The notes below the pieces were generated by a model. That model saw only the letters and a list, made by a program, of their open reading frames with translations. It had not been told where the DNA came from and ran no database searches. Both the position numbers and the translations under genes were made by a program. A stretch of DNA of 63,954 bases, the filler included, from an uncultured bacterium (lineage in GTDB: Bacteria > CAZDME01 > JAYEMH01), in NCBI GenBank assembly GCA_964506785.1. It is 3 parts of 3 records of this genome, joined end to end, with 100 filler letters (N's around TTAATTAATTAA, not from the genome) between each part and the next. Parts side by side here need not be neighbours in the genome. Positions count along the whole stretch, not along the records: positions 54,930 to 63,954 come from CAZDME010000052.1; 2 more parts are not named here. The stretch is one strand, 5' to 3'. How positions within the stretch are numbered: the first letter of the stretch is position 1; every line of letters begins with the position of its first letter. Below, one piece after another: positions 10,097-59,633 of the stretch.

Positions 10097-12249
10097 GGGT
10101 TACGCAAGAAAGGGCAGCGGTGGGAAAAAGAAAAAAAAGTCGGGGATTTTCGATAACTGAGCTACTCGTTGCTTTAATTGTTGGATTTATCGTTTTGACG
10201 GGAATTGTTCTGGCTTGGAATACTGTGGAAAAAGCCTGGCTTATTGAACGCATTCATTCTGTATTGCTCGGTGAGCTAGAGACGTTTGCCGAAAGGTTTA
10301 AAAAGGAAATAAGTGCTTCAGACGCTAATCAGATCTTTTTTTACCCAGAAACTAGCCTGACTTATGAAGCGATAAGTTTTCCGGCGGCGGTAGACGATGA
10401 TAATGATGGTTTTATTGAGCTTGATACCGACGGTATTATCATCTGGGATGAAACAATTATTTATCACGTTTTTGTAACGCCGGAAGGAGAGACGCAGCTG
10501 AGACGGACTGTATTTGCGCCACGCATTGATTTGTCGAAGGAGGACCGCCAAATACAGATTAACCAAGTTGTTTCGAATGGTCAAGCTATTGAGACTACCC
10601 CTAATTTCCAGAATGCTGAAACCAGATTTCTATTTACCTGTACGGCGTCCTATCCGGCCGAGCCGGTTGAGTTAATTATTGAACCAAGCGCCCGGGAATT
10701 TGATGCTTATAGTTTGGAAACGGCCCGGAGCAAAGAAATATCTTTCGGCAACACGACCCTAACCGCTGGCGAGCACTATATTACATTTCAACTTGCCGGC
10801 ACCTCTCATGGTGGATATGAATTAGGTCTTGACTCTTTTGCTTTTTCTCCCAGTGGGTGCCATCGGGAAGCTGAAGAGTGTCTGGTGCATAGTGATTCCG
10901 GAAAAACTAAGATAAATGAAGATATGGTTAGTTGCGGCAGCTGGAATGCCAATCGCCACCTTGAATACCAGTCTAACCAAGAGGATGATTTCATCAGTCT
11001 AAATTTTTACTATGACGAATGGATTGAAACCAATTTCCATCGATGTTCGCCGGCAAAAACCTTAATAGATTATAGCAATACCGATGGTGACGGCGGGACC
11101 GCCAGCAATAAAGACTATATTGTCAGACTTTCCGGTTATGGTGAGACTTGGAATGTCCAGGAGCAGGTAGGCGCAGGTGTTTCGGAGGAAGCCCTCGATA
11201 TTGAAAGCCCGGTTGTAGGCAGAAACTATCGAAATGTTATCTCTTACCAGATAACCGATACCGATGGTAGTGCCGTCAGGTTTAAATTCAAAAATTGCAG
11301 CGCAATCTATGATTTGCATCTGGAATCAGCTACTTTATTCGAACGTTCCGACGGGCCGGATGGAGATGAGGGTACCAAAAAAATAATTACTTTCTCCGGG
11401 AATCCATCCGTGACGATCACTAAGGGGAATTCATTATGGTCCGACTGGATCAATATGTTAGACATAAATGATTTCAAGAAAGACGAGGATTATCTGCTGA
11501 GTATTTTCGTTAGCAAGGCCAATCCCATAGGCCTTTCGATTTGGCCAGGGTCAGCCGGGGCGGCGCACGCTTATTATATCGAAAGTGATACGAATTTTTC
11601 CGAAGAAGCTGATTGGTCGGCTGCTGGCGAAAGTAATGCTATTTATGCTCTTGAAGCTATTGAGGTGAGCTATTATGCTTCGGGTACCCTAACTTCGCAG
11701 ATTTACGATACCGATCTTGATAATCCTTCTTTCAGCACTCTTTCCTGGAATATTGCCAAAAATAATTATGGCAATTATGCCGGCGGCGGACTAGGGGCGG
11801 ATTTAATTTTAAAAGTGAGAAGCGATGACGACAAAAATGCTATTTTAAGCGATAACGACTGGAGTGATGAATTAGCCATCGATACCCAATCGACTACCTC
11901 CGGGAGTGCGGACATAAGCGGGGTTAGTGGCGGTCGCTATGTTCAATTCCAGGCCGAATTTTATTCACAGCCTTCATCAGGCAGCTACGATTATATTAAA
12001 TCCTGTGTCTTAAAGAATGTAAGTATCAAGTGGCCGGGTGAATCTACTCCGGGAGGTACTAATCTGGTCGATATAAGTGGTTATATTACCACCCGCCCAG
12101 ATTACGGCAGATTTTCTGTAGAGGTGGATGGAAAACCTTTAACTAAAGGGTTAGAATTAAGTTTAACCTTAACTAAGAATATCTTTGGCGTTGGTCCGGT
12201 TTCCCGTTCGGTTAGCGCCGTAATACAGCCAAGAAATACCGCCAGATAA
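10093..12249 (+). CDS. Very large minor pilin, PilW/GspJ-like, with extra beta-rich acidic domains
   Basis: KSRG|FSITELLVAL prepilin motif; C-terminal VIQPRN typical of PilW/GspJ-like ends; 718 aa. Confidence 0.8.
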   Translation: MRVTQERAAVGKRKKSRGFSITELLVALIVGFIVLTGIVLAWNTVEKAWLIERIHSVLLGELETFAERFKKEISASDANQIFFYPETSLTYEAISFPAAVDDDNDGFIELDTDGIIIWDETIIYHVFVTPEGETQLRRTVFAPRIDLSKEDRQIQINQVVSNGQAIETTPNFQNAETRFLFTCTASYPAEPVELIIEPSAREFDAYSLETARSKEISFGNTTLTAGEHYITFQLAGTSHGGYELGLDSFAFSPSGCHREAEECLVHSDSGKTKINEDMVSCGSWNANRHLEYQSNQEDDFISLNFYYDEWIETNFHRCSPAKTLIDYSNTDGDGGTASNKDYIVRLSGYGETWNVQEQVGAGVSEEALDIESPVVGRNYRNVISYQITDTDGSAVRFKFKNCSAIYDLHLESATLFERSDGPDGDEGTKKIITFSGNPSVTITKGNSLWSDWINMLDINDFKKDEDYLLSIFVSKANPIGLSIWPGSAGAAHAYYIESDTNFSEEADWSAAGESNAIYALEAIEVSYYASGTLTSQIYDTDLDNPSFSTLSWNIAKNNYGNYAGGGLGADLILKVRSDDDKNAILSDNDWSDELAIDTQSTTSGSADISGVSGGRYVQFQAEFYSQPSSGSYDYIKSCVLKNVSIKWPGESTPGGTNLVDISGYITTRPDYGRFSVEVDGKPLTKGLELSLTLTKNIFGVGPVSRSVSAVIQPRNTAR

Positions 12250-13499: not shown

Positions 13500-13502
13500 A
13501 AA

Positions 13503-13700
13503 ATGGCTAAAAATAAAATGAGGGAACAGATTAATGTCTGGTTAGGCGGTTTGTTAGGGCAGGTTTCCAGGAAGGAATTGATGCATATTGCCCGACGCTA
13601 TCATGTGCCTCTGGCTAATCGTTTGGACAAAGAGAATTTAATTAAAGAGATTATTGAAGTAGAAAATTTATTAGAAGAAACCCTTAATCATCAAAAATAA
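13503..13700 (+). CDS. Small helical protein resembling the Rho N-terminal (HeH) domain
   Basis: KELMHIARRYHVPLANRLDKENLIKEI fits the ELxxIAkxxgI....lxKxeLI pattern; GGAGG RBS. Confidence 0.5.
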   Translation: MAKNKMREQINVWLGGLLGQVSRKELMHIARRYHVPLANRLDKENLIKEIIEVENLLEETLNHQK

Positions 13701-28079: not shown

Positions 28080-28179
28080 NNNNNNNNNNNNNNNNNNNNN
28101 NNNNNNNNNNNNNNNNNNNNNNNTTAATTAATTAANNNNNNNNNNNNNNNNNNNNNNNNNNNNNNNNNNNNNNNNNNNN
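28080..28179. other. Artificial contig-joining spacer
   Basis: N44-TTAATTAATTAA-N44, with stop codons in all six frames. Confidence 0.97.
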
Positions 28180-54829: not shown

Positions 54830-54929
54830 NNNNNNNNNNNNNNNNNNNNNNNNNNNNNNNNNNNNNNNNNNNNTTAATTAATTAANNNNNNNNNNNNNNN
54901 NNNNNNNNNNNNNNNNNNNNNNNNNNNNN
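54830..54929. other. Artificial contig-joining spacer
   Basis: N44-TTAATTAATTAA-N44. Confidence 0.97.
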
Positions 54930-57731: not shown

Positions 57732-58316
57732 ATGAGAAAGGCAATCATAAAGAGAAAAACTAAAGAGACAAAGATTGAATTGAAATTGAATTTGGACGGA
57801 CAGGGTAGAAACAAAATAAAATCAGGCATACCTTTTTTTGACCACATGCTTACCCTTTTCAGCCAGCACAGTTTAATTGATTTGGAGATTGTTGCCAAGG
57901 GGGATCTTAAAGTCGATTATCACCACACCATTGAAGATATTGGCCTTTGTTTGGGTGAAGGACTTAAAAAAGCCCTGGGGACTAAACGGGGAATAAACCG
58001 CTACGGCTCAAAAATATTACCGATGGACGAGTCTCTTATCTCAATAAGTCTAGATATAAGCAATCGGCCGCTTCTGGTTTTTAATGTTCCTCTAAAGAAA
58101 AAACAAACCAAAGGTTTTGATATCGATTTAATCGAGGAGTTTCTTCAAGCTCTGGTCAGCCGGGCAGGCATTACCCTGCATGTCAATTTAGTCTATGGGC
58201 GGAACTCGCATCACATAATCGAGTCAATTTTTAAAACCCTGGCTAAGGCTTTAGCCGAGGCCATAAGTTTGAATAAAAGGGTAAAAGGTGTTCCTTCTAC
58301 TAAAGGGAAACTATAA
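57732..58316 (+). CDS. hisB: Imidazoleglycerol-phosphate dehydratase
   Basis: RKTKETKI, FFDHML, HHTIED, PMDE, NSHHIIE, PSTKG; RBS before ATG 57732. Confidence 0.96.
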   Translation: MRKAIIKRKTKETKIELKLNLDGQGRNKIKSGIPFFDHMLTLFSQHSLIDLEIVAKGDLKVDYHHTIEDIGLCLGEGLKKALGTKRGINRYGSKILPMDESLISISLDISNRPLLVFNVPLKKKQTKGFDIDLIEEFLQALVSRAGITLHVNLVYGRNSHHIIESIFKTLAKALAEAISLNKRVKGVPSTKGKL

Positions 58317-58360
58317 TACAGGGATTAGCGCTGATTTAATAACCGACTTTCAGTGATAAA

Positions 58361-59176
58361 ATGTTAATTATTCCCGCCATTGACCTAAAAGGGGGACGTT
58401 GTGTTCGTCTCCGTCAGGGAAAAGCAGATAGTGTTGAAACCTTTTCCAATGACCCCGTAAGCGTGGCCCAAACTTGGGAAACCCTGGGTGCAAAACTAAT
58501 TCATCTGGTCGATTTGGATGGCGCCTTTAAGGGGAAACTCCAGAATTTACCGCTGATTAAGGCGATTGTTAAGGCGGTCAGGATTCCGGTCCAATTAGGG
58601 GGAGGATTAAGGGATTCCCGGGAGATTAACCGGGCTTTCAAGGCAGGTGTTGAGCGGATAGTCCTGGGAACCCGGGCATTTGAATCCCCGGATTTAATAA
58701 AAAAGCTTATTAAGAAATATGGCCAGAAGATATTGGTTGCGGTAGACAGTTCTAACGGTAAATTAGCTGTTCGCGGTTGGGAAAAAAAGGTAAATCTGGG
58801 GATTATCGACTTTATTAAAGAGATGAAAGATTCAGGTGTAAAAAACTTTGTTTTTACCGACATTAAGCGGGATGGAATGATGAGGGGTCCGAATATTGCC
58901 CTGGTCAAGGAGATTCTTTCTAAAGTAAATCCCGTTAGAAAAGGAAGTTCTCTAATGACCGGCGGCGGCGGTCATACCCAACGATTAAAATCGCTGGCTT
59001 TTTCTAACGGGGTGAAGGTTAAATTGATTGCTTCCGGCGGTATTAGCTCTAAAGGAAATTTGAAGAAACTTAAAAGATTAGAGAAAAAGGGTCTGGCGGG
59101 AGTAATTATCGGCCGGGCTTTATATACGGGCGCCCTAAAATTGGAAGAGGCAATAGAGATAGGCTCCCGCTCCTAA
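58361..59176 (+). CDS. hisA: ProFAR isomerase HisA containing a 29-aa in-frame insertion
   Basis: IPAIDLKGGRCVRL.QG, HLVDLDGA, GGGLR, TDIKRDG, IASGG, GRALY. Confidence 0.96.
   Translation: MLIIPAIDLKGGRCVRLRQGKADSVETFSNDPVSVAQTWETLGAKLIHLVDLDGAFKGKLQNLPLIKAIVKAVRIPVQLGGGLRDSREINRAFKAGVERIVLGTRAFESPDLIKKLIKKYGQKILVAVDSSNGKLAVRGWEKKVNLGIIDFIKEMKDSGVKNFVFTDIKRDGMMRGPNIALVKEILSKVNPVRKGSSLMTGGGGHTQRLKSLAFSNGVKVKLIASGGISSKGNLKKLKRLEKKGLAGVIIGRALYTGALKLEEAIEIGSRS
58928..59014. mobile_element. 87-nt palindromic miniature element inserted in frame in hisA
   Basis: Terminal inverted repeats CCCGTTAGAAAA (58931-58942) and TTTTCTAACGGG (59000-59011); two internal hairpins; length is a multiple of 3. 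Confidence 0.8.
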
Positions 59177-59179
59177 AAT

Positions 59180-59222
59180 TGTGTAATGTTAGATGCGTTA
59201 TGTGTAATGAAAAATCGGAAAA
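59180..59222 (-). repeat. Second copy of the CATTACA heptamer element (inverted) between hisA and hisI
   Basis: Reverse complement TTTTCCGATTTTT CATTACA CATAACG CATCTAA CATTACA CA aligns to 37121-37170. Confidence 0.85.
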
Positions 59223-59249
59223 CGTTATTAAATTTATAGAGGAAAAATT

Positions 59250-59633
59250 ATGGATATTTTAAAAGAAATAAAATTTGACCCATCGGGACTTATCCCGGTA
59301 ATTATTCAGGATGCTGAAACCAATGAAATCCTGATGCAGGCCTATATGAATGAAGAGGCCTTGAAAATTTCCTTAGACACCGGGTTGGTACATTTTTTTA
59401 GCCGCAGCCGCAAAAAGCTCTGGCGTAAAGGGGAGACTTCCGGGCATATCCAGGAAATAAAGGAAATATTTTTAGATTGTGATGGCGATAGTTTGCTGAT
59501 TAAAGCCGAACAAAGAGTGGCTGCCTGTCATTTAGGATATAAATCCTGTTTTTTCAGGAAATTAGATAAAGGGAAATGGGGTATCGTTGCCGCCAAGGTT
59601 TTTAATCCAGAAAAAACCTATGAAAAAGAATAG
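59250..59633 (+). CDS. hisI: Phosphoribosyl-AMP cyclohydrolase
   Basis: GLIPVIIQD, SRSRKKLWRKGETSG, DCDGD, ACHLG..SCF. Confidence 0.96.
   Translation: MDILKEIKFDPSGLIPVIIQDAETNEILMQAYMNEEALKISLDTGLVHFFSRSRKKLWRKGETSGHIQEIKEIFLDCDGDSLLIKAEQRVAACHLGYKSCFFRKLDKGKWGIVAAKVFNPEKTYEKE

Follow-up and report, generated by a model that had tools for sequence, protein, structure and literature searches.

The window, by which we mean the whole 63,954-nucleotide stretch of DNA that was analysed, covers several contigs of the genome of an uncultured bacterium (GCA_964506785.1; G000), with N runs at 28080-28179 and 54830-54929 as the joins. Its third part (CAZDME010000052.1) contains a hisA gene whose product matches the HisA family TIGR00007 above the cut-off (257 bits), the match being split in two stretches. 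The gene carries an 87-base insertion with the following features.

58361-59176, plus strand: hisA host gene, 271 residues, with the insert at residues 190-218
58926-58929, plus strand: left copy of the 4-bp target duplication, TAAA; the empty site of G001 reads TAAG here
58930-59012, plus strand: whole non-autonomous element, 83 bp, equivalent to G000:C52:4001-4083
58930-58942, plus strand: left terminal inverted repeat, 13 bp; the same end also flanks GIY-YIG genes
58943-58999, plus strand: variable loop, with homology to that of copy L055 from another genome
58950-58961, plus strand: putative degenerate inner right end, which with the left repeat would close a nested minimal unit of ~31 bp
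58955-58975, plus strand: inner hairpin 1, overlapping 13 bases that are extra relative to L055
58973-58999, plus strand: inner hairpin 2 (58978-58997) and a stretch like the 3' end of the GIY-YIG gene
59000-59012, plus strand: right terminal inverted repeat, 13 bp
59013-59016, plus strand: right copy of the 4-bp duplication, TGAA; its difference from TAAA on the left is synonymous (Val)

The hisA insertion is real, 29 codons long and in frame, as the initial annotation had recognized. An exact, single and clean 29-residue gap sets this HisA apart from every one of the 22 orthologues that were retrieved (with G000 itself counted, 23 of 41 genomes gave a match), and the empty sites exposed by this alignment include that of G001, with TAAG at the site. 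The HisA proteins of the same-family genomes G001 and G002 are 74% and 69% identical to that of G000 and both lack the insert, and Asp8 and Asp129 are invariant in the alignment (A1). A DNA contig from a sequencing run of an independent study (X5) spans the insert with no gap, and the insertion is therefore not an assembly artefact. No joint that skips the insert was found in the DNA contigs of the sequencing runs, an observation that does not bear on removal from RNA. Run X5 also contains a strain variant, T>C at window position 58926 in the left duplicated 4-mer, with the insert retained. In an AlphaFold model of HisA based on a nine-row alignment, 199 of the 271 residues reach a pLDDT of at least 90, and residues 196-216 fall below 50 in a loop between helix 179-189 and strand 221-225. 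The predicted structure fits a tolerated surface loop, as had been proposed from the sequence.

The perfect 12-bp inverted repeat and both inner hairpins lie where the initial annotation placed them. The flanks GTAAA and GTGAA had been read as a short target duplication; a duplication is present, but it comprises 4 bp (TAAA/TGAA) and not 5 bp, and the unit that it encloses has 13-bp ends with an outer T-G pair (83 + 4 = 87 bases). The insert region is more stable than all 200 shuffles (RNA fold z -4.35, DNA fold z -5.56), and a search of 58300-59300 returned no Rfam match up to E 5. The hisA loop aligns with the L055 loop (local score 40, maximum 28 in 200 shuffled sets), the 13 extra bases being the main difference, and on this homology the two copies are assigned to one subfamily. 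Intact 31-bp minimal units of the nested type are present in G001 and G085. The last 27 bases of the loop are similar to the 3' end of the full-length nuclease gene described below (score 10.5, maximum 9.5 in 300 shuffles), a modest, post hoc resemblance that was first spotted by eye and concerns one of four ends tested.

A relaxed census of G000 yields 23 units, one of which, a 24-bp match, is probably due to chance; 11 have an exact 4-bp duplication, and three shuffled genomes yield none. The half-sites face inward in 24 cases and outward in 2, and a reading as integron attC sites was dropped on that ground. In an earlier list of 23 units, with one weak pair dropped, 4 bp is the only register with a duplication (9/23 exact, permutation mean 1.6), and nothing appears at 2, 3, 5 or 6 bp. 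The units are 26-126 bp long, and their loops share almost nothing with each other. Nine units lie within frames of at least 120 aa, and eight of these have lengths divisible by three (3n) after 4 bases are added; the ninth is in an antisense frame. In-frame hosts besides hisA include folK (HPPK), Memo/AMMECR1, NfeD, a GATase_2 protein and others, and two gene starts also carry a unit. At the position of the folK copy, G002, G005 and G009 each show the empty site; for the GATase gene, the third host, the orthologue search found none for an empty-site comparison. The proposal that a non-autonomous mobile palindrome enters housekeeping genes in frame with target duplication is supported.

Three further observations concern individual copies in G000 and, in one case, other genomes. 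Insertions recur at the prepilin GFTL motif (G000:C23:8751-8824, L068, L069, L130, L346, L358, L480), which the element rebuilds. The copies at G000:C30 near 13500-13584 and C8:295-376 share their loop and one flank and therefore arose by a larger duplication. How longer copies can grow is shown by G000:C1:20494-20538 and C17:16989-17048, where a single 4-bp duplication encloses two minimal units or a doubled left end.

Further copies of the inverted repeat occur well outside G000 and in other phyla. A species-genome scan gave at least 125 loci, and Patescibacteria, Omnitrophota, Planctomycetota, Desulfobacterota, Nitrospirota, Cloacimonadota and Bacteroidota are among the matches listed. Fifty genomes selected for matching hold 1-88 copies each, with 0 in reversed-pattern controls; in samples not picked by a match, the carriers are 28 of 151 Omnitrophota and 3 of 38 distant bacteria. 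A viral scan returned 24 loci, many of which are terminator-like chance matches.

What is conserved among these copies? We analysed a set of 130 copies from which nothing was dropped, so that one copy is counted twice and a few terminator-like matches are kept. The search pattern held the outer 10 bp of the stem fixed. At stem positions 11-13, at least 12 triplets occur, yet the two arms are complementary in 119/130, 113/130 and 83/126 copies (permutation maxima 73, 100 and 55). Position 14 is unpaired, with complementarity in 19/108 copies against 31.7 expected, which is below chance and marks a sharp stem boundary. The outer 10 bp also show paired double changes in the GIY-YIG metagenome loci. 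The conserved structure is the 13-bp closing stem only, with fixed ends and free loops, and this does not support the multi-branched fold of the initial annotation as the defining feature. Loop content ranges from ~3 to ~280 bases, and the short units are from 26 to more than 150 bp long. Against the hairpin reading given below, the paired variation at positions 11-13 could also reflect separate enzyme subfamilies that bind double-stranded ends.

The duplication is a 4-bp Y-N-N-R word. Exact 4-bp duplications surround 57 of the 130 copies (permutation mean 8.7, maximum 21) and are present even around 28-33-bp units. No palindromic word was found among 103 exact duplications, against 29.7 expected, in a pooled sample to which one genome contributes 37. 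The other 73 copies are without an exact duplication; many of them have two different Y-N-N-R words, so that one word may be carried rather than duplicated, and a minority class has inverted-type flanks. Among mismatched copies within ORFs, 15 of 16 still fit a net gain of 4 bases, and G-T versus A-C mismatches on the sense strand (11 to 5, p 0.21) give no strand signal. In G052, 38 of the 44 copies examined (of 88) have exact duplications, and near-identical loops lie in different duplications; a 53-bp subfamily of this genome keeps its ends and length, with a consensus of only 40-50% at the loop centre. Many copies in G043, G075 and G045 have fixed, non-matching flanks, and in these copies the hairpin rides in larger composite repeats. 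These composites (L181-L219 in G043 and G075, L235-L249 in G045) contain short tandem units and are often located just upstream of start codons. A possibly composite unit is also seen at L092:3685-4802 and L100:295-506, where repeated left ends occur at neighbouring gene starts with a common TTCA flank; the gene that they enclose is presumably phosphomannomutase-like.

Copies in genes keep the reading frame. Among copies in long ORFs, 35 of 38 are 3n in length and stop-free, compared with 36 of 92 outside (p 1.5e-8), which answers in the affirmative the question raised at the outset of whether intragenic copies are enriched for 3n lengths. In-ORF copies read the repeat in no frames other than its two stop-free ones. 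Such copies are therefore most likely translated, not spliced, and for the hisA copy itself translation is very probable.

Which enzyme mobilizes the element? The mobilizing gene is not in the window, as was noted from the sequence, and a GIY-YIG nuclease gene is the sole gene found between element ends. In the complete genome of Ca. Velamenicoccus archaeovorus LiM (G085), one inward pair among all half-sites lies 307 bp apart, and this element has an exact TGAA duplication around a 96-codon GIY-YIG gene (Pfam PF01541, E 6.3e-14). The same genome holds both gene-bearing and short forms. Full-length elements measure 265-307 bp and encode GIY-YIG proteins of 83-96 residues. The best-match loci for the G085 protein include 15 of 30 with a repeat pair and 9 with an exact duplication. 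The same-family genome G002 has an intact 279-bp element that is fused in frame to a prepilin at the GFTL motif. The GIY-YIG gene is fused in frame to pilin in both G002 and G152, and prepilin peptidase could thus release the nuclease. G000 is without an intact GIY-YIG element and contains only a stop-interrupted relic at C41 (score 67, null maximum 42); the gene directly after this relic begins, by our assumption, like feoB.

A metagenome search returned 80 loci, and 76 of the 77 scorable loci have the repeat pair, a proportion that is inflated because the query pattern is encoded by the repeat itself and hence biased. Exact duplications are present in 56 of these loci (permutation mean 35.8, maximum 43), 48 of them TGAA. 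A profile trimmed of nearly all repeat-coded residues gave 18 top loci, of which 15 have the canonical pair and 1 has a variant, and only 4 of the 15 have an exact duplication. In 50 of 76 loci the gene ends with a stop codon immediately at the right repeat, which means that the gene and the ends are fused, and one full-length subfamily uses the host ATG as its start and rebuilds a start for the host gene. Pairwise differences at the three codon positions of the gene (0.26/0.16/0.49, 23 copies) have the pattern of a gene that is under purifying selection.

Pfam detects GIY-YIG only in the full form, with no DDE, HUH, serine, tyrosine or Cas1 enzyme. The protein is modelled as a single domain (pLDDT 92.5), and Tyr, Arg, His and Glu positions that we take to be the catalytic residues are invariant in alignment A2. 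Its nearest solved structures are UPF0213 and the branched-DNA nuclease Slx1; NCBIfam gave no match above its cut-off, and an ESM Atlas search returned generic GIY-YIG names only. Related GIY-YIG clades are bracketed by other inverted repeats (L349, L352, L353, L356, L362, L364, L366-L369, L467, L477), which suggests a set of enzyme-repeat pairs. Other small GIY-YIG genes lie beside tRNA-like genes with partial duplications of the tRNA end (L348, L363, L468, L469, L472, L478; G000:C43 near 643-894). Short copies or extra ends are also seen within or beside full-length elements, with the gene sometimes broken (L344, L358, L381, L382, L453).

Among Omnitrophota, close GIY-YIG homologues occur in 9 of the 28 genomes with the element and in 9 of the 123 without it (Fisher p 0.0012), at a cut-off of E 1e-31 that was picked after the scores had been seen and among genomes that are related, not independent. 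Of 18 gene-bearing genomes, nine yield no short copy when the strict pattern is applied. Furthermore, five copy-rich genomes (50-88 copies) are without an intact gene of the clade (the best match has E 3.8e-28, and G083 gives no match), and among 20 loci in these genomes a single broken gene is bracketed by the repeats. This missing gene is the main result against assigning the element to the GIY-YIG protein. The five genomes are fragmented assemblies, and loss of the autonomous partner is common for MITEs. Searches for another partner found no recurrent enzyme among clustered ORFs within 2.5 kb of short copies, which are housekeeping neighbours only, nor did any of the long repeat pairs whose flanks match, among the first loci, enclose a mobile gene; a motif regex search of the G000 proteome gave mostly noise.

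We propose, at a probability of about 0.7, that the hisA insert is a gene-less, MITE-like derivative of an element composed of an inverted repeat, a GIY-YIG gene and a second inverted repeat, which acts on single-stranded hairpins. Within this proposal, derivation of the insert from the GIY-YIG element is very probable, the GIY-YIG protein probably initiates mobility, and the odds of the single-strand hairpin route in particular are about even.

An ordinary MITE moved in trans by a DDE transposase, with the GIY-YIG gene as a passenger caught between the ends, is the strongest alternative and in our view an unlikely one. A short duplication next to terminal inverted repeats is the hallmark of DDE enzymes (PMC11602168, in the portion used here). 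The IS4/IS5 family DDE_Tnp_1 (PF01609), found in 0 of the 5 first genomes, is present in 7 of 15 element-bearing genomes of a wider set, including G052, which is without the GIY-YIG clade gene. However, no DDE gene lies between the ends in any locus scanned. For the two DDE families covered, PF01609 had no match in the complete genome G085 and none in G000, G001 and G002, and IS1380 (PF13701) was found in 0 of 5 genomes. A unit of 28-33 bp is too short for the two ends of one duplex to meet, yet exact duplications surround such units. The absence of palindromic targets also counts against a DDE enzyme, and a passenger would not need the stop codon that is formed at the right repeat in most full-length loci. 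A DDE enzyme acting on a cruciform was considered and dropped, as was a piggyBac-like TTAA element, TTAA never being an exact duplication.

Could the hairpin instead be copied from RNA? In retro-type copying, the GIY-YIG protein would nick the target and a reverse transcriptase acting in trans would copy the hairpin RNA, much as the nuclease of Penelope-like elements nicks the target. Of five genomes tested, three have RVT_1 genes, G085 and G052 among them, and the loops diverge fast while the duplications stay exact, although copy-to-copy turnover equally predicts loop divergence. There is no RVT_1 match in G000 or G002 (both about 90% complete), and G002 nonetheless has an intact element. 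Neither a poly(A)-like tail nor one-sided truncation is seen, and SsnA, a related nuclease discussed below, does not bind RNA (PMC11893778, as far as the parts of that paper cited here extend). We regard the retro-type route as improbable.

A Y1/RAYT tyrosine transposase had been suggested as a possible partner, in which case the element would be a REP-like repeat that carries one flanking tetranucleotide. Y1 genes were detected in all five first-tested genomes, and the fixed, non-matching flanks in G043, G075 and G045 would suit a carried tetranucleotide. Nevertheless, Y1 genes do not discriminate, being as common in element-free (25/33) as in element-rich (16/17) Omnitrophota; none of nine inspected Y1 loci is bracketed by the repeat, and one has an element copy inserted in a broken gene. 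The fixed flanks belong to the larger composite repeats that carry the hairpin. Copy-specific exact duplications do not fit either, Y1 chemistry being incompatible with them, and we consider this partnership very improbable. Two RAYT-like Y1 genes in G000 (C1 near 10929-11723; C23:7146-7805) are likewise not bracketed by the element repeat.

A tiny intron or translational bypass, by which the hairpin would be removed from or skipped on the mRNA as the initial annotation had entertained, could draw on the conserved closing stem and direct repeats for precise removal and on the 3 of 38 long-frame copies that are not 3n, but it is the least probable of these readings because in-gene copies keep frame (including 8 of 9 in G000, the exception being antisense), only two stop-free repeat frames are in use and there is no Rfam match.

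The preferred reading, an element mobilized by its GIY-YIG protein, must accommodate the features of the copies, which require a process that reads the 13-bp stem whatever the length of the loop between ~3 and ~280 bases, avoids flanks by which the stem would be lengthened and leaves 4 additional bases. We envisage that the element would become single-stranded during replication, during transcription or as incoming DNA, allowing its two ends to pair as the 13-bp stem. The nuclease, acting in trans, would recognize the outer 10 bp and cut in the unpaired flank. Host polymerase and ligase would then join the freed strand at a non-palindromic 4-mer (Y-N-N-R), leaving the 4-mer on both sides. Cutting of single-stranded DNA beside paired ends is proposed because of the relatives UPF0213 and Slx1 and the behaviour of SsnA; these steps of cutting and joining, like the origin of the second 4-mer, are inferences on our part. 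To our knowledge, no GIY-YIG nuclease has strand-transfer activity. The hisA copy would be kept in the mRNA and, once translated, would form a disordered loop that connects helix 179-189 to strand 221-225 and leaves the barrel intact.

The closest precedent is Ssn, a group of single-domain, ~90-residue GIY-YIG nucleases that are accompanied by NTS/SRM hairpin repeats (Chenal et al. 2025, PMC11893778; comparisons refer to the parts of that paper cited here). SsnA requires single-stranded DNA to bind its hairpin and makes its cut a few bases upstream, and the authors liken the architecture of GIY-YIG gene plus hairpin to an insertion sequence (PMC11893778). The present family likewise has a small GIY-YIG gene flanked by a genome-scattered repeat, with hairpin DNA as the likely substrate. 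However, Ssn genes are flanked by complete 20-50-nt hairpins, whereas each flank here is half of one stem, and NTS copies are rarely in genes (2%), whereas the present element often is (PMC11893778). The published degenerate SRM motif is absent from our copies (0/130 short copies, 0/76 and 0/80 loci). The nearest structures of the present protein are UPF0213 and Slx1, and SLX1-like proteins are a sister clade of Ssn in the supplement of PMC11893778. The 4-bp duplications and empty sites are seen in the present family, and the wording 'target site' is absent from the main text of that paper. Thus, compared with the Ssn paper in these parts, the half-site ends, duplications, empty sites and gene-less derivatives are new.

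Rickettsia palindromic elements are palindromic mobile DNA that enters unrelated housekeeping genes without shifting the frame and is presumably translated (PMC10969869, in the part cited here). The present element resembles them in its in-frame entry into unrelated genes (hisA, folK, Memo/AMMECR1, NfeD, GATase_2). By their description in PMC10969869, the Rickettsia elements are set apart from it: they measure about 150 bp and have a conserved peptide, whereas the present units range from 26 to more than 150 bp, keep only the end peptides PVR..SNG or PLE..LTG and have a coding full-length form.

Insertion sequences and MITEs have terminal inverted repeats of 10-15 bp, target duplications of 2-10 bp and both autonomous and non-autonomous forms (PMC11602168, PMC10969869, in the sections drawn on here). 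The 13-bp inverted ends, fixed 4-bp duplication and empty sites (hisA, folK) agree with such elements. In contrast, the full form is shorter than 310 bp, no recognised transposase lies between its ends and its targets are never palindromic; the smallest units, 26-33 bp, are shorter than the 50-800 bp of prokaryotic MITEs (PMC11602168, same limits). In small hairpin repeats and nesting into composites, the family is like REP/RAYT and IS200/IS605 (Y1) systems. In those systems, small hairpin repeats are spread by a small protein that acts on single-stranded DNA. Unlike them, the present family has no constant tetranucleotide tag, its duplications are copy-specific and Y1 genes do not track it.

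We know of no recognised bacterial transposase that is a stand-alone GIY-YIG nuclease. Our literature searches, with thin coverage of subscription journals, found no description of this element family or of a stand-alone GIY-YIG transposase; among the papers listed for it, the repeat sequence gave chance primer matches only, and the main text of an Omnitrophota preprint (10.64898/2026.06.07.730766) contains no 'palindrom', 'inverted repeat' or 'MITE'. In-frame palindromic insertions in Rickettsia, MITE ends with duplications, and small GIY-YIG genes with hairpin repeats are already known (PMC10969869, PMC11602168 and PMC11893778, in the parts cited).

If the GIY-YIG protein moves these elements, it would represent a new enzyme class in transposition and a source of very small autonomous elements. 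The insertion-sequence suggestion of Chenal et al. (PMC11893778, main text) can thereby be put to the test on a family whose ends, targets and empty sites are defined. The family also offers a concrete origin for translated insertions of the Rickettsia type in essential proteins, and it accounts for the unusual PVR..SNG and PLE..LTG peptides that annotated proteomes of uncultured bacteria contain. In its broadest form, for which the chances are balanced, our proposal is that a GIY-YIG nuclease of ~85 residues alone may mobilize insertion sequences of less than 310 bp, that, because it would act on the single-stranded 13-bp stem whatever the loop, any content between half-sites, be it 3 bases or an entire gene, would be mobile and that the gene-less progeny may be a main source of translated palindromic insertions in uncultured bacteria.
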